NCBI GenBank assembly: GCA_001244265.2
Contig: CDLV01000014.1
Span: 868,001-932,000, forward strand
Source: Microbotryum violaceum
Lineage: Eukaryota
Length of the DNA: 64,000 bases
Reading direction: 5' to 3'
Shown here: piece after piece, positions 7,185 through 60,775 of the stretch
How the letters are laid out: every line of letters starts with the position of its first letter
Numbering within the stretch: position 1 is the first letter of the stretch
Translations under genes and position numbers: made by a program
Notes under the pieces: model-generated
What the model was told of the DNA's origin: nothing
Database searches by the model: none
The model's input: only the letters and a program-made list of their open reading frames with translations

Positions 7185-7376
7185 TGCGACGCTCCCGTGT
7201 GGCAGTGGATGAATGGTGGGTGGAAGAAGGACTGAACACGTGGGCGGAAGGAGGGAAAGAGAGAAACGAAGACGCGCGCGCAAACTGCACGACTGCGCCG
7301 ACTGCGCCACAATTTTTGCAAAGTCTTCTTCCGGACCCTCAACGGTGGTAAACGTGCACCGCTCGTTCGCTCCGCC

Positions 7377-10300
7377 ATGGCGGGCAACACAACCTCTCGC
7401 CCATGCCCTTGTTCCTGGTGTAAAGGGGCTTCAGTGTCAAAAGCGACCTTCTACCGCCATCACGCTCGACAACCTAATGGACCCCGCGCTACCGAAGAGG
7501 CTGCCATTCTCGAGGTACCGCGGCAGCCATCGATGCTTCTAGCACCGCCTGGTCCACAGTCTCAATTATTCCAGCCCCCACGACCTACACCCAGTTGGTT
7601 CGCAACCCGCTCGCCACAAAAATATACCCAATCCGCAGAGCGAATCGTGTCGCGAAAGGCGTTCGTCGGTTCTTCGATGGGCGCTCAGCTCAATGACTCG
7701 GCGCTTTCAAACGACACACAAGCTTATGGCAGCGTCTCGAGTAATATTTCGCACACCGATGCACCAAACTCACCATCTCTGCCATACGAGAGCGAAGAAT
7801 TCAGTATGAACATCAGCCCCGAGCTTCCCCAGATCCCTGAAGGCGATTACGATTTCGAGCGAGCTTCTTGGACGGGGGGGGTCAATGGACAGTTTCGAAG
7901 GCCATGCACTGGAGTCGGACCAAGACGTACTTCCTCAGACACAACTGTTTGAAATGACTTCCGCTTTGGAGACGACATCCCCCGCCCTGCAGCCCCTCGA
8001 CAATTACAGTTCGAGCTCGCTCCCATTCGACGACGACGATCCACTTGTCGTCGAGGAACTTTGGAGAGCGGATCAACGGTTGGATGCCAATGGTGTCTAC
8101 AACACACCCACCACATCCCGATTGTCCAGCTCCCAGGAGCGCGCAGTGGCAGAGGAGGAAGTTCGCCAAGAGATCGAGTTGGGTGAGATTCATATCATAA
8201 ATTGAATGTTGCTAGTGAGTGGGCGAGTGCCGCGTCCCTGATGTGAACCTCTGCTCCACTGCCTTCAGCCAAGGCTCTCCCGTACTACGACGTGGATACA
8301 CTGTACGACTTTTCTTTTCGACATATGTACAACATGACGCGCCAGGCGAGCAAAATCTGGGAGGTACTTGGGAGTCGGCCTAGTTTGCAGAAAGTACGTG
8401 CTCGAGTGTTTGCATTGACAGGTAAGTAGTCGGGCTGCATTCCATTCTTGATCTTCAAAGCGCAGTGTTCGCTGACAGTTCGTCGATTTAGGCTTGAAGC
8501 CTGTTCGGATACCCTGCTGCGTCAAGACCTGTGTTGCTTTCACTGGGCCGAGAGAAGCATTGACACATTGTCCAGTATGCAATTCGCCGAAACTGGATCA
8601 AAATGGCCATCCTCAAAATACATTTCTGTACCTGTCGCCCGACGTGTACTTAAACATCTACCTGCGCGATCGAGTGTACGCCTCCTTGATGCGTTATCGA
8701 TCCGACTTTGAGCGCAATCGAGATCCTCAAGAGGTCGTGGACTTATTTGACGGTGATCGTTATCGCGAGAAGCTGGATCAGAACATATCATGGACGAACC
8801 CACCTATCGCAGGTGCATCCCAACCGACCGTCTCTACAATCAACGTCAAGTATTATGAGAACGATGTCGACGTCGCGTTCGGGCTGTTCACCGATGGCAT
8901 TCAACTATTCAACAAGACTCAGAGCGAATGCTGGCCAATCATGATGATCAATTACAACCTACCGCCAGAGATACGTTACAAGAAGAAGCATCTCATGACC
9001 GTCGGCATCATACCCGGCCCCAAGGGCCCCAAAGACATTGATTCATTTCTTCATCCCCTCTACGAAGATGCTCGAGCATCGGCTAGAAACGGACACATGG
9101 TCTTTGACGGTGTTACAGAGGTGTGTAATAGCGTCGCCGAGTTAAGTCCTGCATATCCTCCGCCCCGTGGAGACTGATGCACATTGCCGCATTGACAGAC
9201 CATGGTGCGACAGCGATGGTTCATACACGTGATTGGAGGCGACGGACCTGCTCTCTCAAAGATGCTTGGTTTCAAGGGTCCAACCGACAAATGGCCTTGC
9301 CGAGTCTGCCTCATTCAAGGAGTTCCATGCGCTGCTGCCCACAATCACAACTACTACCCCCTCAAGATGTCTCTCGACTCATCGCATGCGAACCGATCTG
9401 ATCTGACCGCTTTGGATCTTCCCATGCGTTCGGAAGCAACGATCCGCGAAGCGGCATCGGAAAAAAATCCTACATTCGGCCTCAGCAAGCTGAGCTCGGC
9501 GGCGCACCTTCCTGGATTTTCGCTTCATCAAGACGGACCTTCGGACTTCATGCACGCTGTCTTCGAAAACGTCGCTCGAAAGCTCTTCAATACGTGGCAT
9601 GGTGACTTGGCGGCTCAGAAATCAAAGGGTTACAAGACCCAGGCGCCACAAGCTCAGAGAGGCAGATCCGCGCAAGGGAAGGTGACATCGGCGGCTAGTG
9701 CAGAAGCAACGACGTCCGCGGCCGCAGTAGACGAAGCGCTTGGGACCGACTTACCTGACTGGGTGTTACCAAACAAATATGGGAGGTCATTGGCCAGGAA
9801 ATCACCAACGGCGCAAAGACAATACCCAGCCTATTCGCTCGAAAGATGCCCAACATCCACCTACAGACTGGAGCAATGACTGCAGAGGATTGGTCGAACT
9901 GGATTCTCTATGTTGGCCCCTGTGTTCTTCATGATCGACTGCCCGCCAAATATTTCGCCCACTTCCTGGCGCTTCGGAGGTGGGTTAAAGATTGCATGGC
10001 TATGACAATCAACAAGGAGGATGTAACCAAGGATGGCGCTCTTCGACGTGACATAGCCTCCTGGTGTACCGAGTTTGAATCGTAAGCCCTCACGGTGCCA
10101 CTCTTCCCTGAACGACCTCAGTCATCTGACCCTAATCTGCCTTGTTTACCTCGGCTTCAGATTATATTACTCAGGGAAATCAGCTCACTTGATCAATCTG
10201 CCGCACTCGGTTCATGCGGTCTTACACATAGCCGATTTCATCGAATGGCATGGGCCACCTGCCATGACTTGGTGCTTTGCCATGGAGCGGCTCAACCAAA

Positions 10301-12121: not shown

Positions 12122-15100
12122 TTAATTGAGCTTGACGCAATCTGCAACAAGTACGATAGTATCCAAGTGAGCTGTGAACGGCAGCAAACCGGTCGAAAGG
12201 GAACGTTCGAGCAAAGCTTGCAAATGCTTACAGTCGGCGTTAATTTTGGATTGATCCGGGTTCAGAGCCCAGAGCGGCATGTTGACGGCTGCGCCGGCAC
12301 CTCCCTGGACCGCAAAGGTGGCTGTGGAGAAAGAAAGGATGGAGATGAGATTGCGACCTTATGCGGCCTCGGAGCAACGATGAATCGTTCTTTTCAGGGG
12401 CCAGAACACTCACCCACGAAGACCATCAACTCTGTTGGCCAACGCGCAGGGTGTTGGGGGAGTACATGGTTAGCAGTGACCGTCGGCTGCTCATCGCGAC
12501 AACTCACGAGTTCCACCTGGTTCCCAAGGCAAGCGGACGACTTCGTCAGTTGTGACGGACTGAAAAATGCAAGGTATAATATCACCAGTGACGTACCGTC
12601 TAGTGCTGCGCTCAAGAGGTAATTGTACTTGCGGAACCAAGTGGGCTTGTACCTGCGGCTGTCGGACGAATTCCGGGATTTAGTGAGCAGCGTAATTAGG
12701 AGCTTAGATTTGTGGTGTGTAACTCGGAGGTGGGACGTACAGGTAGTATTGAGAGAACATGGCGAGAGAGAAGGTGGTGAAAATTGAACTGTTGATTCCG
12801 ACAGAGAGGTTGCCGATGCACCAGGCCCACTGCAAAGTTGCCATTCCGTCGGAGAGCGTTAGCACTCTCAGGAGGCATAGCGGTCTACGAGTCACTCGGT
12901 ACTGACGACGGGGCTGACAAACTTGTCAAAGTGCAAACGAGGGAAGAACTTGTGGAGGAAGTAGAAGGGGATTGGAACGAAAAGTCCGATGATGATTCTG
13001 GTGACATAGAAAAGTCCCAGGTCGTTCAAACACCGGTTGTGCTACGCACCGCATGCGAGTCCGGACTCACGACATGGGAATCAAGAAGTAGGGCCGATCG
13101 CTAGAGTACATCTGCTTGCCTGTGGTGTTGAGACAATGATGCGTGCGCCACATGTCAGATAAACTCGCCCCAGCAGGATGCAGTTTTGTCTAGGGCCCTC
13201 ACTCAGAGCGCCCCCTGTGAGGCAGAGATGAATTCTGGCGAATCAGCTTTAACTCCTTTTCCCCAACGGGAACGCCAACGGCTCACAGGTCACTGCAGCA
13301 CTATTAACACCCTGAACTTGCTGACCGGACCATGCCGAGGTACCTTGAACGGAGAGAAGTATGTCGCGCTGATTGCTAACGATCGTGCTCATGACGACAA
13401 TTTGAAGAATACCTCCGAGGATTGTCCCCGCGAGTTGACAAATGAGCGTGTGTCGAGGAGGGATTTTTGTGTACTGCCCCATCTGTTGACATAGTAGCGA
13501 ATGAGTGGTTGATCCCGGAACGCGAACATTGGTATAGAATGCCCACCTTCAGATCTTGTGAAAGACCAATCGCCTGTGACGTCGTGTTGTCGCCGTACAA
13601 ACTGTCAAGTCGACTCTTCCTTCAGAATTCCTCCAGCGCGCGTTAACGACGTTTCAAGACGCACGTGAAGTAAAGATTGGCTCGACTATTGCCAGGCACC
13701 AATGCAGCTGTCGGAGGGCTCAAAGTAAAGTCAGCTGAGGCGAGGCACACGTCGTGTGGCTTCGGAGGCGGCTTACCTCCAAGCATTTGACTCAGTTGGG
13801 CGGTGTCTGGTAAGTTTTTGACAAGTGCAATCAGCATGACGCTGCAGATACATACGCGTCCCCACATCAACGCTCACCAATTTTGAAGCCCACAATACCG
13901 TACATCAACGCTTTGATGGGGTACATGATCATTGCCGTCAAAAGTGTCACTAGAAGAGCCCACCAGGGTAATTGAGAATGTGCCGACTGCAAGGAACACG
14001 ACTGAGAGTCTAGGTTATCGAGCCCTTTGAACCGTCGAGAGCGTCGACGGATTAGCCCGTGCTGAGGACTGAATCACTCACGTAAGTTGTGGCAAGCGCC
14101 ATAGAAAGAGAGCCGGCCATGATTGCGAGGTACCATGACAACTGCAGTGTGGTACGTCACATGGGTGAGATTTCGCAACTCCTACCGGACGTGCGCAAAC
14201 AAGAACTCACAGGAACTTCAGGGTAAACGAGCCTGGAGCGAAGAAGTCCCCACGTCAGTCAGATTCCTCCCCCCAATACGAAGGACGTGGACGCAATACA
14301 GCAATCGGCGTGCGCACATCTTCTCGTGGTGAGGGTCGTATTCTGTGCGGGTTTTATCTGCAGCGCCAATCCGCGTGAGGAAGATGTTGAAGGACGTCAG
14401 AGAAAAGTGTGTAGAACGCTTCGGACACGTACTCACACTGGGCCCAAGCCTTTCGGATCTGAGGTCTAAACCAAAGGACGATGTGGGTAATGGAGCATCC
14501 GATCGCGAGGTTGCAGCCGAGATAGTAAATCGCCGTCGTCGTCGAATACCACGGCAATCCTTGGATGGCGAGGGCCGTCTTGTTGAGCTGGAACTTGTCG
14601 TCTAAGATCAAAGATTGGTCGTACTGAGTACCGTTGAGGTAGAACAGGTCTTGGGCGAGGAAGGGGAAATTTTGAGCGTGCCAGACGTTCTTGGCGTAGC
14701 ATGCGAGCGAAACAACGATGCACGTCAGGAACCCAATATACAAGCTAACGAGTGTCGAAAGGGGCGAGAACAGAGCTCCCAAGGATCCACCTCCGGATCC
14801 CACGAAGCTAGGGTACATCAAGTAGAGCAAAGAAACACATTATCAGCTAGATCCAACGAGAGATTCGAACGGTGTCTCGACACCCACTTCCAGTCGAGCG
14901 AAACCGAGAACACGCCCATTCCTTCGTTTGGCGAAGCACCACCAAAGATCCTAGTGACCCAGGGCGAGTGCTGGTGTGCTAAGCTGTGGTATGCAAATAG
15001 AAGGAACAAATCAGTACTCAGGGGAGCTCGGGGCACGTGCCAAGGCGCCATTCGGCAAGGTGCGCACCAAAAGACAGAGATCCCGATCAAGCTCGGCGCA

Positions 15101-16389
15101 ACGTATTCGGGGATCCATTCCCAGATAAAGATGCCAATCGCGATGCACCAGAAGAAGCGCCATCTTTTCTTGGCCACAGCACTATCAGGATCACGGCCGA
15201 GTGCATCATAGAGGGAGACTGCGGGGAGGATCGTCGGATACAACGCGTAACACGGGTAGACGCAGAGACTTCGAGAGAGGCCCGCAAGCGAGTAGCCGAA
15301 GCATTGCGAGGCGATGAGACTAAAGATGGCGATCCCGTTGTTGAGATTGAGACCGTAGTAGAGCACTTCGACGGCGAAAACACCCACAGATCCGGCGCTG
15401 TGAAGGGAGGTTGAGCTCATAATACCTGTGCACGAAAGGTGATAGGGGCCGGTCAGTACCTGCGATCAGCTAAAAAACTTCGACGTACCAATTGCCACAT
15501 GTTCCTTGATGTTGAAGTCACAAGGGTTGACAAAGGCCCAAAATCTGCTTTTGTCGGCCTTGGGGAGCACGCGATACCACAGTTTGCCCAAGAGGTAGGA
15601 GATAATCTGGACTGCGATCATAATAGGCCCAGCGTGAGCGAGCGGCCGAAAGTGAAGGTGTGGTACATTTTCCTAGTGCCTTACCGAAAAGCTGGCTGAC
15701 GTAGACAGTCTGTAGCGAATTTATAGTAAATTAGCTGAACATCCGACTACCTGAAAGACTTTTCTGTTGACCAGAGCTCACCTGAGGACGGAAGTAGAAG
15801 ATCTGCGCCAGCGTCGCAGCGAAACACGTCAAGCCGAGGCCGATGACCCACATCCGCAACGTCATGACCAGCATGGTCGGGTCGTCCTCGAGTGAGATGC
15901 ACCTGTGACAGAGCAATCGAAGAATTGAGAAAATAAATATTTGGATCACATCGAGTAGATACATAGACCACGAAGTGACCTGTACGCAATGTCTTCGGTC
16001 GTTTCGAGAGGGCGCTAACAGGTGAAAAGTCAGGGGGGAGGACCCGCCACGGGTTGTGAAAGAGGGGATCAGTTCCGGCCAGTTCCGGCCGCGGCCGCGG
16101 CCACGGTGTAAATGAAACCCGGCACATAGAGCAGGGCCCTTCTAGACAGACCACTTACCTCTTTACCATTGGGCAGCAAGCTATCCGGCTCGAGCTCACT
16201 GACATCCGCGTTCCCACCTTTGACGTTGACGGCAATGGTTTTCGCCGGCGAGGGCTCGAGCGTCGCCGTTTTCTCGTCCACGTTGCCTTCACCGCTGTTA
16301 TCTTTCTCGGTCGAGTCCTCATCAGTGTCGATCTGCGGCTTTGTCGGTGCGGGATTACGCTGAAGTCGCGCTCGAAGCTGGCTGAACAT
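12122..16389 (-). CDS. OPT-family oligopeptide transporter (many introns)
   Basis: EDDPTMLVMTLRMWVIGLG, YEWIPEY-like (IWEWIPEYVAPSL), LSQDLK.GQYTKIPPRHTLICQLAG, WFRKYNYLLSAALDG and FAVQGGAG..MPLWALNP..ADYC. ATG 16389; stop TAA at 12124-12122. Confidence 0.9.
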
Positions 16390-17501
16390 CCTGGATCGTA
16401 AATGTTGTGATCCCACGCCAGAAAAGCCAAGAAGACAAGCTGTGGGACCGGAGTCGGCCGGGAACCAGGATCGAGGCTGATCGGTCGACGAGGCGGAGAG
16501 GAGGCACAGTTGCACTCACCGCGCCGTGCGCTCGCATGATCGCATCGCATCCAAACCGACGAGGCGCCCGTCGCGGACATTGACACACGCGTTGACCTCG
16601 ACTAATCGACGCCGAACCCGAGAAGATCCGGTCTGGCCGGCTCGTCACAATTCACCGCGGCTGAGGTTACCGGGACGGTGCCCTGCGAACTGCATACCAA
16701 CCGCTAGTAACGACCTCGAGGCCCGAAGGAAACCGTGTGACCTCGGGGCGACTTGGCGGGACGGATCGGATACGGACCAGTGAATGCTGGCTCTGGATCC
16801 CCGAAGGACCACATGGTGGCCGATATATCTGGTGTGATGTGATGTCGTCCATTTTATATGCCAAGAGACCAGATAAATAAAACAGTTGCGTATCATATGA
16901 AACCGCCCCGCCAAGTATGGCGGGTGGTGCCCCCACCCAGCCCTAAGACAGTAAGACAGTTACAGTTAAAGACAGTAAGACAATTACAGTCACAGCTAGG
17001 TTTCAGGGGGTTCCGAGGACATTGCCTATTCTCCTGCCCTCGATCCGCTCAGGCTTCCGGCGGCTCGTTCCCCCTCCGAGTCTCGCCATCCTCCTTCAAT
17101 TGCTTTCCTACTCGTTCAATCACCTCATCGACGTTCAAACAGCAGGATACGCACCGTTCCGAACACCGGCACGCAAACTGCAAGAGGCCCCGATGGCAAT
17201 GAACGGCGGCGGCTTCATCATGCAAGAGGATGCGGCGAGCGCTTCCATGCTGGGTATTACCCAGGAATTGCCGACCGAGATTGCAGGCGTCAGAGATCTT
17301 CAATTCTTCAAGCAAGAAGATGCGACTTACTTTGCCAAGGTAAGCTTCACACCGAAATTCGTGCCAGCAAACGGCCTGCTTATTCTGCTGCTCGTGTTCC
17401 ACAGATATTGGGTGACCAGGATGAGAGCGAACTCTCGATCGAGGAGCTCAAGGAGCGCAAGATAATGCGCTTGTTCACCACCTCAACTGAGGGCGACACG
17501 C

Positions 17502-18922
17502 ATGAACAACCACAACAACAACGACACCAGCAATGCCACCCCCGGTGCTATAGCACCTAATCGCCCTCCCGACCCCACCGGCGTCACCGTCACCGCCCAA
17601 ACCAAGTCGTACTCCGCGGCCGTCTCCGCCCGTTCCCATGCGAAGACCAACGCCACCCCCGCCACCGCCACGACTGTTGCCTCCCACCCGATGATTCACA
17701 ACATCGCCAACTGTGTAATCATCAAAACCCCTCCCGCGACCACCTCCGAGAAAGTGCTCTCAGCACTCGATCACCACTACCCGGCCCTTGCAGGCGCCAT
17801 GCCCTGCGTCATCAAGGGACAACACGGCATCCGATTCCCTAAGGACGCCGACATCGCCGACCTGGTCGCGAATGGTCTGACCGTTGGAAAGACCTTGTGC
17901 CAAGTCGAGAAACTATTCTCAGCCACTACTGGTCTATTTCAATGCACCCTTTCTGGCTTCTTCTCCGATGTAGAGGGCCTCCGCCTCTTTGATGAGCAGA
18001 TTGCCGAGTACGGCAAGGTCCTCCTTCGCCGCACTCATTACATTGGCAAGACTAGGCACATCTCTGGGGTGTATGACTTTGTTCTTGCCCTCGGGGACCC
18101 AAACAAATTGCCTCCTGCATCCATCTCCATTGAACGCGACGGCGTGACCGAGCGTATCCCGCTCAGGATCACCGGTGGCATGCGCCACTGTGTTTTCTGC
18201 CGTTCCGCGGCCCATGTCCGTAAGGACTGCCCCGTCGCCCCGGCGTGCAAGTCGTGCGCAAGCACCTCGCACGCCAGCCAGCATTGCCCGGGCCGCCGCT
18301 TCGCGTCGAGACCCCAGGGCACTCCCGAGTCACGTGCCGCGCAAGCCTCCACCATGACCAAAGCCCCCCGGCCTCCAAGTCGATCCCTGCGCCACCCGCG
18401 CCCGACCGCTCGTTGAAGACCAAAAAACGTCGAGTGAACCCAGACCAGGACCTGGCTGCCCAGCCCCAAGATCCATCTAACAGGGCTCAGCCTGAACCCC
18501 TGTCGGAGACTCCTCGCCCCGGTTTCTCCTTCAATTTCCCTCCCAACTCCGCCCCCCTGCCCGCCTCCAACCAGTCAACTGCCCCTCCCCTCGTTGAAAA
18601 ATCCTCCGAGTCCCCCAGCTCGGAGACGACCCCTTCGCCCCCAAGCCCTGCTCCGGCCACACCAACGCCAAAGACGATCATCACTCGTTCCCAGTCAATT
18701 GCTGCCCTCTCCACACCAGCCACTCGTGAAGACCCGCCCACTCCGCCTGCCCCCGAAGCCTCCGAGCCGAACCCCCGGCCCTCCTCGCCGTTGCCCTCAG
18801 CGATCAAAGCCCGACCCGATGCCACCGACGCCGACGAAGATGCCGAAGAAGAAGGCAAAGACCAAGAAGCACCCCCCGAGGACGTGGACGACGTTATGGA
18901 GCAAGACGATGAGCACAATTAA
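17502..18922 (+). CDS. LINE ORF1 (gag-like, two CCHC zinc knuckles, Pro-rich tail)
   Basis: CVFCRSAAHVRKDC and CKSCASTSHASQHC. One frame slip at the C6 run 18364-18369 joins ORFs 17502.. and ..18922. Confidence 0.8.
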
Positions 18923-21900
18923 GATCCCAAACGTGTCTTTTGTTGCTGCCAACGTGCAGTCAATCAATGAAGATCGTAAGCGTGCCTCTCTTTTCTCCAA
19001 TCTCCGCTCCCATAACGCCGATGTCTTTCTCCTGAGCGAAACGGGCCGACCTTCCCCGGAAAGGGTTGCCCAGTGGACTCAGGAGTGCCAAGACTTAAAG
19101 CTCTCCGCTCTTTTCACTCCTCTCAACAACACCGCTATACTCTGGAAGAGCGACTCCGTGGTCATCACTATTGATCCCGAGTCACCTCCCAACACTCTTC
19201 GTGCCTCTTTCGCTTTCCCCGACCGAGTCACCGACGCCACCTTTCGCGTGGGAGACTCAAAAATCCGGGTTGTATCAATATACGCGCCTTCCTCCGACAA
19301 GCCAGACAAAAAGCGTTTCCTCTCACATCTCAGCACAGCCCTCCGACAAGTCGTGCGCGACGAGCCCTCGCCGCCTGCGCTCTTAGTCGGGGGGACTGGA
19401 ATTGTGTTGAGTCCCAACCCCTCGATTCGGAGAACCAAAACGGGACGAATTATGGGGGCCAGGAGATGCGCGACCTTGCCACGGCCAACAACCTCTTTGA
19501 TGTCTATCGGCTTCACCATCCCAAAGGACGAGCCACGACGAATCGCTCAGCGCCCGGCACGTGCCGTCGCCTTGACCGCATCTATGTCTCGCCTGATTGG
19601 GTCGACCTCTTCCACGACCACAAAATCTGGGCTCCTGTCCTCAAATCGACGCACTCGATGGTGGCGGCGCGGTTCCAAGTGCCGGGCGCAATCGACATCG
19701 GTCCGGGTAAATTCAAGTTGGGTTTGCACGTGATCGAGGGCGACGCGACCTGCGAATACCTCACTTCCACTGTCCAGGCCCTCTACAATGAAGCCCTCCT
19801 CCAGACGCCCGACGACCCATCAGCAGCTTGGACGTCCACCAAACAACACTTGCTGCCCGAGCTTCAGGCTCTGGCTCGCACACTTGCCCGCTTCCGACGT
19901 GGAGGATCGGAGGAGGCGAAGGCAGATCACTCGCGCTACGGCGCGGCGCTGCGGTCCCGCATTGATCCTTCCCTCGCGGGCCCATCTTCCATCTTCATCC
20001 GCCTACGCAAAGTGCGCGCATCCGACCTCATCCCTTCCCTCTCGGTCGACAATGTCGTCCACTCCGACCCCGACTCGATGCTTGGAGCCGCTAGCAAGTA
20101 CTTCGAAGGGGTCTACGAGGATCGCGCTATCGATGACGCCGCCTTGGAGAAGATTATCGACGGTCTCGCCTCGACTCGCCTATCCCCTGCCGATTCGGAC
20201 AAGCTCGAAGGAGCGTACCCCCTAGAGGAGATAACAAAGGCACAAGAGGCGTGTAAGTCGAACTCCTCGCCTGGACCCGACGGTCTCCCGGTCGAGTTTT
20301 ACCGCGCAACGTGGACAGCCACAGGCCCCATCCTCCGCGACGTCATCAACTCGATCCCCACCGACGACGCCAGTTCTCGAACGTCGGCCCGCCACACTGC
20401 CCACATCCACCTCATCCACAAGCGCGGCGAGAGGGATCGGCTGGTGAACAAACGCCCCATATCACTCATCAACGCTGATGAACGCATCATCTCCCAAGCC
20501 CACAACCAGCGCCTTGCCCCTCTGCTCGAGACCCTGATCGGCTCGACCCAGCGCGGTTTCGTTCCGAACCGCTGGATTGGCACGAACATCGCCGAGGTGC
20601 AGTGTCTCATGGATCCTGGGCTCCCGGGTTCAGAGCCGGTGTCCGGTCTGCTCGCAGTGATGGACTTCGAGAAGGCTTACGACCGTCTTTCCCACACCTA
20701 CATCGATGCAGTCCTCAGCGCCGTTGGCCTTGGCCCGAAAGCCTGCCAATGGTACCGAGCGACCTATACAAACCAATCCGCCTCAATCTACCTCAACGGA
20801 TGGCTCTCGGCCGCGTTCGATATCCTCTCGGGAGTTCGACAAGGCGACCCGCTGGCTCCGTCGCTCTTCGTTCTCGCAATTGAGGGCTTCGCCGTACAGT
20901 TGCGGTCACAAGTCAAGGGCATCGCGAGCCCGGGACTCCCAACCATACGAGAACTTCTCTTTGCCGACGATGCCTGCTGTGCTCTCCACGACACCTCGGA
21001 CCTCGACCACCTCAATCGGGCGATCGAGCTGTACGAGCGGGCAAGTGCCAGCAAGCTCAGCAACGCCAAATCTTTCCTCTACCCCTCGGGTCATTCAGGG
21101 ACCGTCCGATCCCTTCACACCTCGGGTCCTGGCGTCTCAGCGACTCGCAGTTTCGTTACCTGGGAGTGCAGGTTGGGGTGGACATCGCCGAGGATGCGGG
21201 CTGGGAGGAGGTCAAGTCCGCGACCGTCGCCCGGATACGATCCATCCCAATGTACGACCTTCCGTACGCAGCGAAATGTTCGATAATCAATATCTACTGC
21301 TACACGAAGATTCTCTACCATAATCGTTTCATCCCAGCTTCCAAGAGCGTCGTCAAGGAGATCGAGGACGCGGTCATGATCGCTATCCACGGTCGAGCCT
21401 CGGACGGATCTCAGAAACCCCGAAGGTCTCTCGGCTGCGCCTCTGCACCCCTCTCGACCACGGCGGCTTTGGCTTGATTGACTTACCTCGGCGCCTCGCG
21501 GTCGATCACGCCAAGTGGGTCTTTCATCTTCGGGACCCGGACGGCTGCTTCATTCGGCACCTCTTCGACATCCGCACTCGCCTTCAGGCGGCGAACGAAC
21601 GCACCCCCTTTACCTTGCCCAAATCAGGCCCCAACCCACATCGTCGCTCGTGGGTCTGGATCTGGTGGGCCTACTTTTGCCACCCTCCTCCACAGTGGGA
21701 ACGCGCAGTGAGGAAGACGAAGGCCCTGCTCCCTCCACGATGGATCCGCTATTTCGAAGCCTGGGATTTGGTGACAACGCTGAACCCCCCGAACTTTCCA
21801 AGAGCCCGAATCTGGAGCGGTGGGCAACACACGTCCTCTACTTCCCAGCAGGCCACGGAATCCGACTCTCGGTGAACCCGACGCTTTTCCGAGGACCCGA

Positions 21901-22476
21901 TGGCGAGGTGATGACTCCGTCTTCGTTTGTGAACGCGTCCAAACGCCACCAAGCCTTCCTCTACCCTCCTATCCTCCCTCTCGGTCATCAGAGGGTTTTC
22001 TGTCTCCCGAGCAACGCTGGAATGCCTGGTGGAAGGCGCTACGCAAGATTCGCAGGGTTCATTCGGACGCCGAAGACACGGCCCACCTCCTCTCCCTAGG
22101 TTCACTTCATCCAGGTAGCCAAATCGCTTCTCCAAATAGCCGTTCTCTCCACAATCGATCTACCGCATGTGTCATGTGCCTGTCGGAGGCTCCGGAGACC
22201 CTGGCACACCTTGCGGTCGGTTGCCCGTTTGCCCGCCGCCTCTGGTCTGCGCTCACTCCTATCCCACACCCCGACTTTGTTCAGTTCGTGTGCCCGGTCG
22301 TTTCTCGCTCGGAACGCCGACCCGTCGAGCTGCGTCTACTCTTCTTCCACGCGATCTGGAAGCTCTCTCGTCGCCGTCGATTTTCGTCGGATCCTCTGGA
22401 GCCGATCGCCGAAACGGCATTTGAGGAGCTCCGCGCGTCCATCCAGGAGTCCAAGGGACGACTGGTTTCGCTGTAA
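18909..22476 (+). CDS. LINE ORF2: APE endonuclease, reverse transcriptase and C-terminal CCHC
   Basis: AANVQSIN, DVFLLSET, SIYAP, GGDWN (restored), RLDRIY, SPGPDGLPVEFY, RPISLIN, QRGFVPNR, DFEKAYD, GVRQGDPLAP, LFADD, GGFGLIDL and CVMC..ETLAHLAVGC. Five single-base slips, all in homopolymers. Confidence 0.9.
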
Positions 22477-23054
22477 CCGCCTAAGGGGGTTTTAGTGGGT
22501 ATGGTTGATTTTGTTCCAAGGTCAACGAGTCCCACACTACTGGCCTCGCCAGTGTGCTTAACTGCATTCCCTCCGTCTTTTCCGAGGATTTTTAGGCATT
22601 AATATAGATATGCTGTTAATGAAATCTATTAGATAAAAAAAAATTGCTCAAGATCAAGAACGGCACACCGCCGATGCGAAAGACGGCATTGCGACAGGCT
22701 TCGGAGTAATAAAAAAATGAGAAAAGGACAAAAATGCACTCGAAAGATAGCGAAAGGACGAAAATGCCCTCGCTTCTTTTCATGAGGACAGAAATGCCCT
22801 CGGATTCTCGACTTCTGTAATACTTGATATATCAGCTCATAAACACGACGGTAGCTTCTTGTAGTCGTTGTGATCAGCGCCGTATACTCAGAATCCCCAG
22901 AGATATCGTGAGAAGCCAGTTATCACGGTCGCAAGCCGAAAGCGAGCGATGAGTATAGACCGCAGTGAATTTCATATGAAACAGGCCAGCATGCCTTCAA
23001 CTTGTAGTAACATTGACAGTCCTGACACCTTATGCTCAAATGCAAATGGTCTAT

Positions 23055-23582
23055 CTATCTATCGCATGTAACTCGGTTGTGTCCGGGGCCTTTGCAGAGA
23101 CCACAGATCGTGTCACGCTTGGACCTCTCGTCCGCACCCTGGATCCTGCGCTTGATCGGACGTCGTGTACGCGTGGAGAGATGTGACGGAATGATAATGA
23201 CACCTTCTTCTTCGCCAGTTGAGTCACGATCGCCCACTTCACCATGACCTCATGACGCTCACGAGGAAGACGATGCAGCTTCCTTGCGGCCCGAGATGGA
23301 ACTGGTTGGAGCGGTGTCGGGTAAGTCTGCTCTTGCTGTCGCCGGTGTGCAGCAGCGATCGGTGACTGTGGGCTTCATTAAAGACAATGATGGGCCAAAC
23401 ACTGCATTCTCCTTTGGAGACAGCAGTGGCAGAGAAGGAGCACGGAGGATATTGGACACTCTTGCTCACGACGCATGTCAGACTTGCGAATTTCGCTGAA
23501 ACTGGTGATCAAGCGCATATTCATGGCCCGCATCTCTGAGCTCCTTCTAGAGACTTCCCCCCTCCCTGAAAGAATGTTCCAT
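23055..23582 (-). pseudogene. MuDR-type transposase remnant: N-terminal DNA-binding domain and C-terminal CCHC knuckle, DDE core missing
   Basis: Across frameshifts it reads KELRDAGHEYALDHQF..RKSD..KSVQYPPCSFSATA..WPIIVFNEAHSH, then KRRIQGADE..ICGLCKGPGHNRVTC. Confidence 0.7.
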
Positions 23583-23901
23583 TGTCGAAAGTCGGTGGTG
23601 ACTTCGATGTCGTGGCGAGAATGCGGAAGGTGGCCAACGTCGATTCGTGAACTCGCGCGCCTCGACGCGTCGACGATCGATGAGGACCCCTGACTTTGCG
23701 ACCGTGATAACTGGCTTCTCACGATATCTCTGGGGGTTCTGAATATACGGCGCTGATCACAACGACTACAAGAAGCTACCGTCGTGGTTATGAGCTGATA
23801 TATCAAGTATTACAGAAGTCGAGAATCCGAGGGCATTTTGGTCCTTTAGAGAAGGGCATTTCTGCCCTCATGAAAAGAAGCGAGGGCATTTTCGTCCTTT
23901 C

Positions 23902-26008
23902 TTTTTTTTATTTGATAGACTTCATTAACAGCATAAGTATATTAATACCTAGAACTCTTCGGAAAAGTCGGAGGGAATGCTGTTACGCACACTGGCAGAA
24001 GCCAGTAGTGTAGGACTCATTGACCCTGAACCAGGATCCACCATACCCACTAAAACCCCCTTTGGTGTCTTACAGAGACACTAGGCGACCCTTGGACTCC
24101 TGGATAGAGGCTCGAAGCCCTCGAACTCCGTTTCGGTGATCGGTTCCAAAAGATCCGACGAGAATCGACGACGGCGACAGGGCTTCCAGATCGAGTGAAA
24201 GAAGAGGACTCGTAGTTCGACAAGTCGACGTTCCGAGCGAGACACGACCGGGCATACAAAGTCCACAAAGACTGGGTGGGGGTCGGGGACAGAGCAGACC
24301 AGAGGCGCCGGGCAAATGGGCAGCCGACCGCGAGGTGAACCAGGCACTCGAGTGCTTCCGAGAGGCACATCACACAGGAGGTAGATCGATTGTTGGGATG
24401 TGGGCTGGTAGGGGAGGCGAATTGGCTTCCCGGATGGAAGGACCCCAGGGAGAGAAGGTGGCCGGTATCCTCGGCGTCCGAGTGAACCCGGCGAACCTTG
24501 CGCAAAGCCTTCCACCAAGCGTTCCAGCGTTGCTCAGGAAGATCGAATACCTTCTGGTGTCCCTTGGGGAAGATTGGGGGAAGATGAAGACTTGGTGGCG
24601 TTTGGACGCGTTCACAAACGAAGACGGGGTCATCACCTCGCCATCGGGCCCTCGAAAAAGCGTCGGGTTTACCGAGAGTTGTATTCCGTGGCCCGCTGGG
24701 AAATAGAGTACGTGCGTCGCCCATTGCTCGAGTGTCTGGCTCTTGGAGAGTTCCGGGGGATTGAGCGTGGTCACCAACGCCCAGGCTTCGAAGTATCGGA
24801 CCCAACGAGCAGGAAGAAGTTTTGTCGTTTTTCTCACCGCATGGTCCCACTTTGGGGAGGATGGCAAAAGTATGCCCACCAGATCCAAATCCAAGGGCAA
24901 CGATGCTGGTTGGGGCCGGTCTGGACAAGGTGAAAGGGGTTGGTTCGTTTGGTGCCTGGAGGCGGATGCGGATGTCGAAGAGGTGGCGTGTGAAGCAGCC
25001 GTCCGGGGCCCGGAGCTGGAAGACCCACTTCGCGTGATCGATTGCTAGACGCCGAGGCAGAACAATCAAACCGAAGCCGCCGTGATCAAGAGGGGTGCAG
25101 AGGCGCGACCGGGAGACCTTCGGACGTCGCTGAGTACCATCCGAAACTCGACCGTGAATGGCGAGCATGGCGGCCTCGATCTCCTTGACAACGCTCTTGG
25201 GGGCGGGAAGGAATCGGCTGTAGTACAAGATCTTTGTGTAGCAGTAGATGTTGATGATCGAACACTTGGCTGCATATGGGAGATCGTACATCGGAATCGA
25301 GCGTATCCGAGCGATGGTCGAGGCCTTGACATCTTCCCAGTTCGCATCCTCGGCGATCTCCACCCCGACCTGAATACCAAGGTAGCGAAACTGTGAATCG
25401 CTGAGACGCCAGGTCCCGAGATCTGGGGCGATCGACCGATCCCGAAAAGCTCCAAGGGGGTAGAGGAAAGATTTGACGTTGCTGAGCTTGCTGGCACTTG
25501 CCCGTTCCGTTCGTAAAGCTCGATCGCCCGATTGAGGCGGTCGAGGTCCGAGAGGTTGTGGAGTGCGCAGCAAGCGTCGTCGGCAAAAAGGAGTTCGCGA
25601 ACGTTTTGGAGGCCCGCAATATCGATGCCCTTGACTCTCAATCGAATCTGACAGGCAAAACCTTCGATCGCCAGGACGAAGAGAGACGGAGCCAAAAGGA
25701 TCACCTTGCCGAACGCCCGACAGGATGTCGAAAGTGGCAGAGAGCCAACCGTTGAGGAAGATCGAGGCAGATTGGTTGGTGTAGGTCGCTCGGTACCATT
25801 GGCGGGCTTTGGGGCCGAGGCCAACGGGGCAGAGGACTGCATCAAGGTACGGGTGGGAAAGACGATCGTAAGCCTTTTCAAAGTCCATCACCGCTAGGAT
25901 GCCAGACACGGGTGTTGAGCCCGGAAGTCCAGGGTCCATGAGACATTGGACCTCAGCGATGTTCGTGCCGATCCAACGGTTCGGAACAAAGCCACGTTGG
26001 GTTGGGCC
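23902..26008 (-). mobile_element. 5'-truncated L1/Tx1-like LINE, copy 2 (diverged relative of copy 1), inserted in the MULE right TIR
   Basis: Starts mid-RT (GPTQRGFVPNRW) and is homologous to copy 1 through the 3' UTR, with T8 at 23902-23909. Carries several indels, including a 5-nt gaacg duplication near 25505. Confidence 0.92.
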
Positions 26009-26312
26009 GCTGTCTTTCGAGGGCATTTTTGTCCTTTTCTCATTAAAAAACAGCCTTGTCTTTCCGTCACGTGCGGGCGCTTGCCGACCTCGATGCAAAC
26101 TAGTTTGGTGACTCCCTCGGTGGTCCCAATCACGAGTGTCTCTTGTGAATTCGCTCTCAAGGCATTGACCAAGAATTCAACACGAGAAGAATGGCTGGCA
26201 TGCTGTTACAGATATGAAATCACACACATAGGTCAAGAGCCTTCTGAACAAACGATATCCGATGGCCTCCTTCTTTTCTTATTATTTTGCTTCTGCGCTG
26301 TCGTTCGGGAGA

Positions 26313-28079
26313 CTATTGCTCGTTGACGAACACACTGGCCATACCCATACCACTGCCAATGCACATACTCGAAACGATGACCTTGGCGCCGGATCGCTTG
26401 GCCTCGGCGAGAGCGGTGGCGTATTGACGAGCACCGGTCGCGCCGAGAGGGTGTCCGAACGCGATCGCACCACCGACCGGGTTGACTTTCTCGTACGGGA
26501 TCTTGAGGTGCTCGATGGACATTACGGCTTGCGAGGCGAAGGCCTCGTTGATTTCCCACAAGTCGACCTCCTCGATCGTCAAGCCGGCCTTCTCAAGCGC
26601 CTTGGGAATCGCGAAAGCGGGACCGATACCCTGAGAACGCAAGGAAGGCAGCATGATTCAGCAGTAAATCCGTCGTTCAACGCCGCAAGAGACTCACCAT
26701 GAGTTTGGGCTCGACACCGACCACAGCGGCGCAGACAAATTTGCCGAGGACGGGCAAGTTGTGCTTCTTGGCGAACGAGCGGCGCGTGAGCAAGACGGCG
26801 GCGGCACCGTCCGAAACCTGCGAGGCATTACCGGCGTGTGTCGAGCCGGTCTTGGAGAAGACGGGCTTGAGCTTGCCGAGCGACTCGGCGGTGACGCCAT
26901 CTCGGATACCGTCGTCCTTGGTGACGGTGACGGTGGTCTCCTCGCCGGTCTTGGGGTCCGTGACTTGGACGGTGACGGGCACGATCTCGGAATCGAACTT
27001 GCCGGCCTTTTGCGCTGCGACAGCCTTTTGGAACGACTTGGCGGCGAACTCGTCCTGGGCTTGACGGGTGACGTTGTACTTTGCGGCAACATTCTCCGAG
27101 GTGATACCCATGGGGACGAGGCAGTCGGCGGAGGGCTCGTGCTCCAAGATCTTGTCCGAGAACTTCTCGGGCATGACACCAGCGCCTGTTGGGCAGTCGG
27201 GGCAAATGTCAGCTCAGCCGCTTTGCAAAGAGGGGCACGAAAGGATCACTCACCGTAGCCCATGGTCATGGACTCGACACCGGCACCGATGCCGACATCG
27301 ATTTGGCCGGCGGCGATTTGGAGTGCGATGTTGTTGATGGCCTGGAGGCCAGACGAGCACTGTCGGTTTAGGGTGCAGATAGACGACGTCACCGGGAAGC
27401 CGACTGTAGACGACGGAATGGATTCGCAAGAGTGCAAGATGCAGGTCGTCAGTACGAGAAAGGGCGGATGTCTAAAGAATTAGGAGCATCCAGGAAGAGT
27501 GTGCCAGCCCGGTGTTTTGCGACCGTTGGCCCCATCATCCAAGTCGAGGAGAATCCGACGTGCGCTTGGGGCTGCAACTGGAACGAGCTCTAATGCGCTC
27601 GAATAAAGGATTGCGACTACGAACTGACCTGCGAGTTGGGCCATACGGGCGACGGTCGCACCACCACCGGGAGGGAGGACGTTGCCGACCTGGATATCTT
27701 CGACGAGGTTGATGTCGATGCCAGCACGGTCAACGGCGGCCTTGAGTGCGGCGGCCAAGAGGTCCTCGGGGGTCGTGTCCTGTTGAGCGGCGAGGGAGCG
27801 CGCAGGCGGGAGCGGGGGCGAGGTCGCCGGTGAGAGCGAGAGAGAGCCATGGAGGTTGTCTTGGTCAGCCAATCGTGTCATCACCACCCTAGAGGAGTCA
27901 GACTCGATCGCAGTCTTACTGACCTTGAAAGGACCCTTCTTGGCTCGGATCAGAGGGGTGCGCACCGCCGAAACGATCACAACGTCGTCGTCCTTCTTGG
28001 CGAGCACGGCCTTCTTGCCACGTGAAGAGGGCACCAAGTGCGACGCCAGAGCGGCAACTCGTTCGAGAGCGGAGGACAT
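26313..28079 (-). CDS. POT1: Peroxisomal 3-ketoacyl-CoA thiolase
   Basis: NRQCSSGLQA, GNASQVSDGAAAVLL, EINEAFASQ, GAIAFGHPLGATGAR and SMCIGSGMG; N-terminal PTS2 RVAALASHL. Confidence 0.93.
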
Positions 28080-28682
28080 GTCTTTGTGGAGGGGAGTGGA
28101 GTTGGGAAAGGGCCGAAAGTTGTGCTAGGCGAGTGGCTGGCTGGACAAGATGGTCAAAGTAGCGCAGGAAGCAGATGGGATGGGTAAGGAACGGGAGAGA
28201 AAGACGTCGGGCAGCCAGAAGCGGCTGGCAAGCGACCCGGGCCCGGCCACAAGAATGCGACAAGCCAAGCTCCGGCTTTCACATCGGCCGACGCCCGAGG
28301 CGCGGGTTCGCGGCCACTCCCCTTGCCAGTCCGAGCGACAGGCGTGATGATCAAGCTCAGGTGAATTTGTCAAGGCGGTTCGCAGCAAGGTTTGTCTGCT
28401 GATCTGGATTCTGGAGCCTTCAGGAGTTGGGGGTGCAGGCACTTGGAACACTCACTTCCGCTGACACAAAACGCGTGTGGCAAAAACAGTCCATCCCTCG
28501 TTTACGTCATCCTAGACTTGATCAAGCCAGGGGTGCAGCAGCCTACCCGAGCTCGAAGGACCGGCCCGTCGGATACTGAACTAAACAGGCCTCTTTGATT
28601 GCAAAGACAGCACAGATAGTCGATGCAAATTTGTACCAAAGACTCTCGCCCGATCCACAACACCAGCTACTCTGCAGCGTGT

Positions 28683-32477: not shown

Positions 32478-35400
32478 TTAGCGCTTGCCACTCTTGCTCT
32501 TCGACTTTTTAGGTCGGTCCGATCCACTATCCGAAGCTGCTCGTCCCTTGCCATTCTGTCTTCGTTCCTGTTCCTTGCGTTCCAGTTTTTCCTCCGCATC
32601 ACTCCAATCATCGGCGCTGATGTCCTCGGCGCTCTCATCGTCATCGTCCGAAGCGTCGTCGTCGTCAAAGTCTGACCCGGATTCAGAGCTCTCACTCTTG
32701 AACACGTCCGACCCAGCCGAGAACTCGGACTCTTCCTCGCTCTCGTCCGAGTCCTCCTCGTCGTCACCCTTGGCCGACAGGAAGCCCCAGCCGCCTTCCT
32801 TGAAGAACTCGTACGGGTCCTCGTTGACGGTCTTCATGATGGCACCCCAGTTGAGGTTCACCGGTCCTTCGGTGAAGGGGATGTCGACCGAGTCGAGCCA
32901 TTCCTTGACATTGTCCAATTGCGCCGACGGCACCGTATTAATGTGAATCGGCGTTCGCTTGAAATCGGCAAAGACGAAGACCATGTCAAAGTTCTTGAGA
33001 CCGTATTGCACGCGCTCAAGATGGGCGACCTCGATCTCGCTCAGCGTCAAGACCAAGAACGGAGGCTCGGTCAAGAAGACGAGCGTCTCGGTCGTCGGTT
33101 GCATAAGCACGTTGGACCGGAACGGCACACCCTGGAAACCAAGCTCGCGGAAGGGAATATCGACCTCGACGCGCCCGTCCGAGGCCTCTGCGATCTTGTC
33201 CGAGAAGGCTTTGAAGTACTTGTTGAGGTCGGACCGACGCCTTCGCTCCTCCTGCTCGGCCTCGAGTTCGTCCTCGTCGTGGTAATTTTTCCGTCGCTTC
33301 TTGTTGCCCGTCTCGTCGAACGACTGGTCCGACACCTCTCGGAAGAACTGCACATCGGCGGCCTTCTTCTTGCCGATCAGGATCGGCGTCTTGAGATGGA
33401 TATGCAAAATGACGATCAGCTCGTGGTCGCACGGCTGGAACAGCAAGTGCTTCATGTTGCTGAAAAGGATGTCTGTGCGCGTAGATAAACATTGATGCAA
33501 GTTGAGTCGGACAATCTCAAAAGCCCACACCTAGGCACAATACTCACCAATCTTTTGTTCCGACTTGAGCGACGACTGGTAGCGAATACCGTTCGAGTGG
33601 ATCTCGACATCGCCCATCTGTCGCTTGCCATCGAAAACAGGTCGAACCTGCACGTCCGTCATCCTGATCGGTCGCTTGCCCTTCAGCTCGATCAAGCGGT
33701 CCTGCTCGACGACGTCGGCGAGTTCCTTGCGTTCGGCCTCGCGCTTCGTGGCGGCCTTCTTCAGCTCTGTGATGTCCTTGTGCACCTCGGCGTAGCGGAA
33801 CCCGTCGAGCGAGCGGTACGTGATGCCTCGGATGAACGTCGCCGAAGGGTCCTCGAAGGGTGTATCCTCCTTCTTGCCCGTGATCGCACCGGGGGTGACG
33901 AACATGAAGCGCAAGACGGTGTAGTCGCCTTCTTCTTGCTTGACGATGCTCTTGAGCGTGTTGATGTGGAACGGCACAGCGTATCCATTGATGGGCAGGA
34001 TGATGGTCGAGCGGCGCACGTCGACCGAAATTTTCTGCGACGTCACCGCCTCGGGAAGCTGCGACTCCTTCTGGTAACTCGTGAAACTCTTCCATTGCTT
34101 CTCGCCGCGTCCACGCCCACCGTCGCCCTCAGAGAAGCGCTCCAACCCAGCTTCCTGTCGGCGGACTGCCAATTCGCGCTGATGCTCTTCCCTTCGCTTG
34201 AGCGCATCCGCATCGACGTCCCGGTTCTCGTTCCTCAATTTGGACTTGACCATGACCGTCGGTGCGGCTTTGCGCGCCACTCCGCGTCCCCCCTGCGCGG
34301 CCTTCTTCTTATCCTCCTCGTCATCGTCCATGAAGAACATGACGTCGTCCTTGCCCTTCATCCCTTCCGAAAGGATCTTGGCACCGGATTTGCCAACCTG
34401 CACGGTATCGACGAGCGAGATCGCGTACGTCTTGTCCCCCTTGGCCTGCGGGATGTTGTGGAACCCGAGCGAGAGCGAAAAGATCATATCCTGTTTGAGC
34501 GTGCGAGTCCCTTTGGGACCGAGCGCGTACGCCGCATCGCGGAACTCCAACCCCATCCCGAAACCGCACGTCTTGACAAAGTGAGGCAACAAGTCCTCTC
34601 GGTCGTTACGAATTTTCTCAACGGTCGCGGCGTACACATCCTTGGCCACTGCGCCCTCCTTAAGTTCCCCAATGACGAACTTTTGCAGTTCGACGAGGAA
34701 GAGGTAGTTCTTCTCTTGCGCCGAATCGGGGTCGATCATGAACGTGCGACCGACGTTGCTGCAGTACGACTTGTAGCGAATACCGAGCGAGCACAGGATC
34801 ACGCCCGGCTTGAGCTTTTGGTCGTCCGTCTGCGCCGAACTTTTGAGGTCGTAGTTGCCTCCGGATTGGATGATGGGCGAGTAGCACCAATCGCCGAACC
34901 CGGTCTCGAACCCATCGCCAAGTTTTAGCGAACGCCAGAACTTGGTATCCTCGAGCTTTTGCTCGATCTGCTCGCCCAATTGCTCGTGGGTGATGCGCTT
35001 GCCCTGATCGATCGCGGACGACATCGCATCGCTGAAGTGCGACATGAGGTGGTTCGTCATTTTGGCAGCGTGCATCTCGTTGCGCTGCAATTCAGAAAGG
35101 GAAGCAAGCATGTCAGCCAAGTGCGCACTATGATGATGAACCGAGCTTGTGACCCACCAGCTCCTCTTCATCCTTGACGGCCAACAAAGTCGAGACCCCC
35201 GGTCCAACATCTATCTCCTTGATGTCCTTGCCCGAGCTCGTGAAGACGCTCTGCCATTCATTGACGAATTTGCCGGCCATCTTGTCCTTCGGGAGCGTAC
35301 CGACCGTGTTCTGCAATGCATCGCGCGTCACACGTCAGCTTTCTTGCCCCGCGTGCGCCCGACGGGACGCTTCCAACTCACGCCATCGCCAATCGCATCA

Positions 35401-52720: not shown

Positions 52721-52729
52721 AGGTGGCGG

Positions 52730-53098
52730 TGGGGCGAGCTCACTGCAGCGGTGTCAGGTTCACAATTCTTTGCGTACTACTTGCACGGATGCTAAGATGG
52801 CGTGCGTTGTCAAACATGGAAAGCCTCCGCGCTGTTCATCACCGTGACGCGCGACTCCATTCGCGATTGGCCGCTCATCGAGGCTGCACTGGGGCCGAAC
52901 GACAAAGCATGGTCCAGATCTCATTGCACGAACGTTCGAAGCCAAGTCCGCCAACAAGCAATGGGCAGGCTGTTTCGGCAATGAATGTAAAATCTTTGCG
53001 TTTTTTGATTTCACCTCTGCTGAAATCATGTAGACTGTTCTTCGATTCTCATGCGATTTGAATTTCATCCGCCCGTTAATTTAACGGGATCCCACTGG
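52730..53098 (+). mobile_element. Short Helitron remnant in the opposite orientation
   Basis: SQFFAYYLH, MACVVKHGKP..LFITVT..WPLIEAALGPND, then hairpin cccgttaatttaacggg (53072-53088) and CTGG|T at 53095-53099. Confidence 0.85.

Positions 53099-60705: not shown

Positions 60706-60775
<70 letters not shown>
60706..60775 (+). repeat. Pure poly(A) tract, 70 nt
   Basis: Directly visible in the divergent intergenic region. Confidence 0.95.

Follow-up and report, generated by a model that had tools for sequence, protein, structure and literature searches.

Introduction

Templated patches of filler DNA at repaired double-strand breaks are a known kind of duplicated gene fragment. Here we describe a locus that resembles them in a 64,000-nt stretch of the Microbotryum violaceum genome (GenBank assembly GCA_001244265.2, contig CDLV01000014.1, positions 868,001 to 932,000, forward strand), which is called the window in the following and to whose first letter all coordinates refer. 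The locus contains a 386-bp internal piece of the gene for SF3B1/Hsh155, a component of the U2 small nuclear ribonucleoprotein (snRNP). The piece occurs at a single locus, has kept an intron, has both ends within exons, and drifts in sequence. It differs from described filler DNA patches in that its origin in break repair is something we infer here. The favored reading, to which we assign a rough probability of 0.8, is that this piece of SF3B1 was copied at the DNA level, as a repair patch, into the spacer between an OPT oligopeptide transporter gene and a thiolase gene, was later split by a long interspersed nuclear element (LINE), and represents a pseudogene fragment.

The locus also shares features with gene capture by Helitrons or by Pack-MULEs (MULE, Mutator-like element), namely a host gene fragment with an intron beside a non-autonomous DNA element with long terminal inverted repeats (TIRs). 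The Microbotryum genome has been described as rich in TIR elements and Helitrons; the main text of PMC10502011 contains neither the term "gene fragment" nor the term "MULE". In contrast to captured fragments, the SF3B1 piece lies outside the TIRs, it has no second enclosing terminus, and there is no sign of amplification. With species-specific LINE insertions the locus has in common a poly(A) tail, near full length, a first open reading frame (ORF1) of the CCHC type, an ORF2 with a reverse transcriptase (RT) and a weak match, below the cut-off, to an apurinic/apyrimidinic endonuclease (APE), the exact restoration of the target, and an empty site. The differences are a target-site duplication of 2 nt (no more than 2 nt in another copy of this family) and an ORF2 that is already distributed over three frames. 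SF3B1 itself is represented by a segment that aligns with residues 418-520 of the human protein and includes the end of the Pfam domain SF3b1, but it comprises 107 of 1252 residues, and nearly the whole HEAT-repeat body is missing. The locus is a non-processed pseudogene fragment with nested transposons; such fragments and lineage-specific LINE insertions are both well known.

Results

Identity and Layout of the SF3B1 Fragment

The fragment is located on the plus strand and codes for residues 356-462 of the 1252-aa parent in three parts. Part 1 (17142-17339) encodes residues 356-421 with the substitutions I361F, T371A, and G406R; its translation, AGYAPFRTPARKLQEAPMAMNGGGFIMQEDAASASMLGITQELPTEIAGVRDLQFFKQEDATYFAK, opens with AGYAPFRTPARKL and closes with EDATYFAK. 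After an intron of 65 nt (17340-17404), part 2 (17405-17475) encodes residues 422-444 (23 aa) and contributes the TT of codon 445. The LINE follows at 17476-22643, and part 3 (22646-22697) supplies the third base of codon 445 and encodes residues 446-462. Here the SF3B1 homology stops within an exon, and in the translation ASE and two stops come next. The next 18 nt after the fragment, gcttcggagtaataaaaa (22698-22715, plus strand), are not SF3B1 sequence, and the first 12 represent the same ASE-stop that is found in the gene model of M. silenes-dioicae. Two partial exons and the intervening 65-nt intron make up the locus's piece of SF3B1, which is given as 386 bp.

When 12 joins across the LINE borders were tried, only three stayed in frame, and the join that drops one copy of TT was the only one that matched all four Microbotryum SF3B1 proteins across the 12-residue junction. 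The original prediction, which had been made from the sequence alone, had placed the fragment and had stated that it is exactly rejoined when 17476-22643 and one TT are removed; both were right to the base.

The top protein match of the fragment is the 1252-aa SF3B1 of Microbotryum saponariae (95% identity, E 4.7e-31). The Pfam profile SF3b1 is matched with an E-value of 7e-6 (26.9 bits, cut-off 25.1), at profile positions 97-128 of 130 only, and residues 418-520 of human SF3B1 align with the fragment in solved spliceosome structures (chain 5ife_C, E 6e-24). The SF3B1-derived segment runs from the last part of the SF3b1 domain into the first part of HEAT repeat 1. Judged by these alignments, the assignment to SF3B1 is far beyond chance. 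A tblastn search of the 64-kb window with full SF3B1 resulted in an E-value of 1e-42, and the three fragment pieces were the only matches at E <= 0.005; other SF3B1 residues were not found in the window, as the 11 further matches all had E >= 1.1. This agrees with the claim that only about 400 bp of the gene are present. Full-length SF3B1 has about 1250 aa and a HEAT-repeat body, and the window encodes 107 of 1252 residues. Because nearly all of the HEAT-repeat body is absent, the fragment cannot act as SF3B1.

The tblastn result also bears on the idea that the SF3B1 region was once duplicated as a larger segment, which deletions would have eroded to the present 386 bp. The retained intron, which indicates a DNA template, and a locus rich in later rearranging insertions are in agreement with it. 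However, no other SF3B1 residue has survived in 64 kb, the borders are abrupt and lie inside exons, and the flanking gene order is conserved in two species. Therefore, we regard such a remnant as quite improbable.

Intact Parent Genes and Divergence of the Fragment

Short proteins (58-188 aa) that resemble the fragment form a single cluster with two members, MVLG_07218 of M. lychnidis-dioicae and BQ5605_C003g02204 of M. silenes-dioicae. Intact SF3B1 genes with 1252-1279 aa are present in both species, i.e., KDE09112.1 in M. lychnidis-dioicae (on a 614-kb contig) and C008g05175 in M. silenes-dioicae, and in both cases the intact parent and the fragment are on separate contigs (KDE09112.1 versus MVLG_07218, and C008g05175 versus C003g02204). 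The 90% cluster of the parent contains proteins of M. saponariae, M. lychnidis-dioicae, M. intermedium, and M. silenes-dioicae, and in all four species the intact gene lies on another contig.

It had been proposed that a lack of intact SF3B1 elsewhere would turn the fragment into a disrupted or misassembled true locus, and the check for an intact gene was positive on other contigs in the two species. Beyond the presence of SF3B1 sequence, nothing speaks for a true locus. Full-length SF3B1 is found on other contigs of the same species, the window holds only residues 356-462, and an independent assembly as well as the sister species place the same fragment by the same OPT gene. The intact parent on other contigs and the tblastn search of the window refute this possibility, and we leave it practically no weight.

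From residue 356 to residue 462 the four Microbotryum parent proteins are mutually identical, and the window differs from them at 3 of 107 positions. T371A and G406R are common to the window and the M. silenes-dioicae copy; I361F is private to the window, and the M. silenes-dioicae copy retains I361. With two shared changes and one private change versus none in four parents, the fragment evolves free of the constraint that acts on its parent.

The Retained Intron and Copying at the DNA Level

The 65-nt intron (17340-17404, plus strand; gtaagc...cacag) is a GT..AG intron of phase 0 at the conserved SF3B1 site after YFAK. It was compared with 21 listed relatives, i.e., 12 spliced gene models and 9 raw ORF calls from unannotated contigs. 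After YFAK, all 12 spliced models run on to IL, and all nine unspliced relatives exit the protein sequence at a V (GTn) codon. Two of these nine (P0012 and P0028) read the intron through in frame and re-enter at ILGDQDES. The unspliced relatives cross EIVDPP|AGY and ALRQ|ITDK without interruption, so that both borders of the fragment fall in exon sequence; P0012 and P0028 carry on past its 3' end into ITDKAREFG. The intron is removed in the gene models of both MVLG_07218 and BQ5605_C003g02204.

The internal intron and the location of both ends within exons indicate that the fragment was copied from DNA and is not a processed retrocopy. The hallmarks of a processed pseudogene are missing: the intron is kept, the end is at codon 462 inside an exon, and a flanking duplication was not seen. 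Two claims of the original prediction withstood this comparison, namely that the intron was inherited from the parent, the site coinciding with the break in 9 of 9 unspliced relatives, and that the copying took place at the DNA level without retroposition, in line with the intra-exonic borders and an intact parent on other contigs.

A variant of retroposition would be the copying of an unspliced, truncated SF3B1 transcript by the LINE machinery. A AATAAAAAAA run begins about 10-12 nt after the fragment, and one LINE family has inserted twice within 9 kb, as might be expected for this scenario. However, the intron is kept, the end at residue 462 of 1252 lies inside an exon and far from the 3' end of the mRNA, the A run is preceded by about 10-12 bases of non-SF3B1 sequence, and the copy has no flanking duplication. 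With the intron kept and the 3' end inside an exon, such a copying of unspliced RNA is all but excluded.

The LINE That Splits the Fragment

The fragment is interrupted by a LINE, i.e., a non-long-terminal-repeat retrotransposon, of 5168 bp (17476-22643, plus strand), which consists of a 26-nt leader, ORF1, ORF2 remnants, and an A9 tail (22635-22643). ORF1 (17502-18416) is intact and encodes 304 aa with two CX2CX4HX4C knuckles at its residues 230 and 249. An RT is predicted within 19175-21286 (RVT_1, E 1.3e-18, 67.9 bits). The APE-like match within 18438-19733 (Exo_endo_phos, 17.8 bits) is below the cut-off of 24.5 and covers only the first half of the profile, and the zf-RVT match within 21784-22476 (23.6 bits) is also below its cut-off. 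Atlas neighbours, which are regarded as a lead only, were of the zf-CCHC/ZCCHC3 type for ORF1 and contained RVT_1 and Exo_endo_phos for ORF2. The three ORF2 matches occupy three frames with stops between them, and therefore the copy, although near full-length, is not autonomous.

The target-site duplication consists of only 2 nt, TT, with the left copy at 17474-17475 and the right copy at 22644-22645 (both plus strand). RNA genes as LINE targets were looked for, and neither an Rfam family nor a tRNA was found in the window. It had been claimed that a near full-length LINE splits the fragment; ORF1, RT, the A9 tail, and the TT duplication bear this out, and the endonuclease match stays below its cut-off.

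The 173-aa model of M. silenes-dioicae (BQ5605_C003g02204, in our comparisons P0035) reads 26 residues straight over the LINE site, and the window sequence contains no GT..AG pair at the LINE borders that would yield this reading by splicing. Therefore, the site is empty in M. silenes-dioicae. Of the two species, one lacks the LINE, and taking the element out restores the target exactly. The fragment, the ASE-stop 3' junction, and two substitutions are common to both species and are therefore older than the species split, for which an excerpt of PMC9004411 gives 0.42 Ma for M. lychnidis-dioicae versus M. silenes-dioicae. The order of events that had been suggested, with the LINE arriving after the fragment, has thus found an empty site in its favor.

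MVLG_07218 maps to 17193-17470 of the window. Together with the scaffold coordinates (see below), this would put the end of the published scaffold of 6149 bp near 17494, 19 nt inside the LINE. An end inside the LINE fits a short-read assembly that breaks at a repeat and points indirectly to the presence of the insertion in the reference strain.

An Orthologous Locus and a Chimeric ORF

The window matches the reference proteins of M. lychnidis-dioicae, and the exon sequence of its OPT gene is identical to MVLG_07217 at all aligned residues (97% identity to BQ5605_C003g02205 of M. silenes-dioicae). The fragment gene adjoins the same OPT gene in both species (MVLG_07218/MVLG_07217 and C003g02204/C003g02205), and therefore the locus is orthologous.

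In M. lychnidis-dioicae p1A1 Lamole, MVLG_07218 is annotated as "hypothetical protein, partial"; it has 71 aa and is located on a scaffold of 6149 bp. From MAMNGGG to KIMR it is the same as the window fragment, and it carries R406. In supplementary file 2 of PMC4469406, MVLG_07217 (470-5359) and MVLG_07218 (5848-6125) are listed on scaffold 255 as "Autosomal", and MVLG_07218 is unannotated. It is absent from the expression table of the same study (file 15), in which MVLG_07217 has values of 14.19 in late infection versus 0.99 in water and 1.97 in rich medium (PMC4469406). A literature search did not retrieve any paper text that names MVLG_07218.

BQ5605_C003g02204 is a hypothetical protein on a 1.9-Mb contig. 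It is composed of MKPPRQVWRVVPPPGPKT, GVPRTL...HLIDVQT, and AGYAPIRTP... in this order, and is uninterrupted across the LINE site. The UniRef name of this model, "n=2 Tax=Microbotryum", suggests that a second taxon may have the identical protein.

The window contains the corresponding pieces on the plus strand. An ATG and a first exon-like piece, MKPPRQVWRVVPPPSPKT, are located at 16897-16950; in tblastn they match residues 1-18 of the 173-aa protein with 17 of 18 identities and are not derived from SF3B1. A 56-nt GT..AG interval (16951-17006) follows, identified by comparison with the M. silenes-dioicae model, which splices it out. The next 45 codons, GVPRTLPILL...HLIDVQT (17007-17141), lead in frame into the SF3B1 fragment. 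A 24-nt tandem duplication, AAGACAGTAAGACAGTTACAGTTA (16945-16992, second copy 92% identical), overlaps the first intron of the 173-aa model. The 45 upstream codons match no Pfam family, and the PDB matches of the 173-aa protein begin only at residue 63. An exhaustive protein search with 17006-17141, shifted by one base from the frame of the model, gave a single match (E 2e-5) to a repeat motif of an EGF-repeat protein, which we attribute to chance. As the fragment is in frame with the upstream sequence, gene callers predict a small chimeric ORF; in the window the LINE takes the place of its last 17 SF3B1 codons. The ATGs of the chimeric ORF and of the OPT gene are divergent and, measured in the window, 508 bp apart.

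This arrangement raises the question of whether the 173-aa ORF may be an expressed young gene in M. silenes-dioicae, the product of which would compete with SF3B1 for a U2 snRNP partner. The upstream ATG, two introns that could be spliced, and the 508-bp spacer facing the OPT gene, which could serve both genes, are in agreement with a gene. If it were true, M. lychnidis-dioicae would have lost the gene through the LINE insertion. We consider this to be very doubtful. From sequence comparison, MVLG_07218 and BQ5605_C003g02204 are both SF3B1 scrap and not independent genes, and this small point is new.

The Neighboring Long-TIR Element and a Second LINE Copy

A non-autonomous DNA element with long TIRs is located at 22716-26044, with its left TIR at 22716-22934 and its right TIR at 23696-23901 and 26008-26044. 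The arms have about 219 nt and show 94-98% complementarity, and each of them contains three copies of an 18-nt subterminal motif; the window contains six matches versus 0.01 expected, and all six are within 22725-26035. None of the six internal ORFs matches a Pfam family. The original prediction had placed a MULE TIR 21 nt from the fragment. The element is real, and the label MULE is at most plausible, from TIR length only. The gap is 21 nt only if the TIR starts at GAG (22719); the repeat alignment starts it at 22716, which gives 18 nt. The element is flanked by A runs, and therefore the length of a target duplication is unreadable; the longest perfect direct repeat in the flanks is AAAAA. 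For the 9-11-bp duplication of MULEs, inspection by eye gave a best 9-mer of 7/9 with symmetric ends and 8/9 only with asymmetric ends.

The proximity of this element makes transposon cargo the first rival explanation, i.e., Pack-MULE-like transduplication, Helitron capture, or similar, with the long-TIR element or a decayed partner as the vehicle. It begins only 18 nt past the fragment. However, the last base of the fragment (22697) precedes the first base of the TIR (22716), and a fragment that is outside both TIRs does not make a Pack-MULE. The 18-nt motif, confined to the element in 6 of 6 cases, was not found anywhere in the window left of 17142, and a Helitron-like end (hairpin and CTRR) was not seen by eye at either border of the fragment. 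The flanks are unrepeated in the window, and there is one annotated protein cluster. The proposal that the MULE caused the capture or the truncation stays hypothetical; the ASE-stop 3' junction is already present in M. silenes-dioicae. A cargo origin is unlikely; it is followed, in this order, by the remnant of a larger duplication and by the retrocopy of unspliced RNA. The Pack-MULE idea had also been examined for the interior of the element, and it was rejected with the six internal ORFs that lack a Pfam family. The element, 18 nt from the fragment, could mark a break-prone site.

A second LINE copy of the same family, 5'-truncated to about 2.1 kb, is located within the right TIR (23902-26009, minus strand, T8 at 23902-23909), with a target duplication of <=2 nt. 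It is 80.9% identical to 20539-22642 over 2119 columns, and differs from it by 216 transitions and 163 transversions, 379 substitutions altogether, as well as some 20 short indels. Decay resembling repeat-induced point mutation (RIP) between the two copies was considered and rejected: TCG was the commonest context but accounted for 27 of 216 transitions and was not dominant. The two copies are old and diverged family members, and not one copy hit by RIP.

Neighboring Genes and Other Features of the Window

The left neighbor is the multi-exon OPT gene (12233-16389, minus strand), which is complete (Pfam profile positions 2-622) and corresponds to MVLG_07217. The right neighbor is the thiolase gene (26318-28124, minus strand), with its N-terminal domain identified by Pfam and its 3' end by eye. 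To the left of the OPT gene, an ORF at 8476-9177 (among ORFs at 7236-9879) matches Pfam Transposase_21, tnp2 type (E 2e-15), and represents a DNA transposon. By arithmetic, the published 6149-bp scaffold would start at about 11346 of the window, perhaps at the end of this Transposase_21 repeat.

Another element of about 2.1 kb (51027-53098) has inverted ends of about 330 nt with 78-86% identity; it terminates in CCAGTGGGAACCCG..., which bears no relation to the ends of the element at 22716. The gene for SPT16, a subunit of FACT, is represented by two adjacent ORFs (32478-35210, minus strand), and its PH-like domain spans the break between them (profile positions 34 to 35). The best explanation of the break is a short intron, in frame and with a stop in it. 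At 60706-60775, a perfect repeat with a period of 6 nt lies within an ORF that matches Pfam YL1.

Discussion

According to the favored account, a 386-bp internal piece of SF3B1 would have been copied as DNA between the OPT and thiolase genes of a Microbotryum autosome. The copy was most likely a templated patch of filler DNA laid down in the repair of a chromosome break. This step is favored because the ends are inside exons, enclosing transposon ends are missing, and there is a single locus: only one protein cluster with two members bears the fragment, and a self-BLAST of the window did not reveal further copies of the fragment or its flanks. The patch would have fallen in frame with upstream sequence, which would have given rise to the chimeric ORF. 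Later, in the lineage of M. lychnidis-dioicae, the RNA of a LINE would have been reverse-transcribed into codon 445, leaving the TT duplication and the A9 tail and severing 17 codons. Another copy of this family would have inserted into a TIR of the neighboring long-TIR element.

Several points weigh against this account. The inferred repair step draws on the lack of enclosing transposon ends within one 64-kb window and on protein databases that list only annotated ORFs. Only 18 nt separate the fragment from the long-TIR element, which makes a transposon-linked origin a possibility, and the 45 codons ahead of the fragment matched neither Pfam nor PDB. In addition, the ORF2 of the LINE is spread over three frames, and yet the LINE is absent from a species that, by the dating excerpted from PMC9004411, split off only 0.42 Ma ago. 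The late arrival of a broken LINE would be explained by each of the following: the mobilization of a defective copy in trans, a polymorphism of older date or introgression, or indel errors in the assembly.

As a genome feature the locus is ordinary, the function of the fragment is putative at most, and it has little meaning beyond annotation. It leaves a small puzzle, namely that a LINE copy with a broken ORF2 seems to have been inserted after a recent species split. The insertion is clean and datable, with an empty site in the sister species, and it could serve as a marker of LINE activity in anther-smut fungi.

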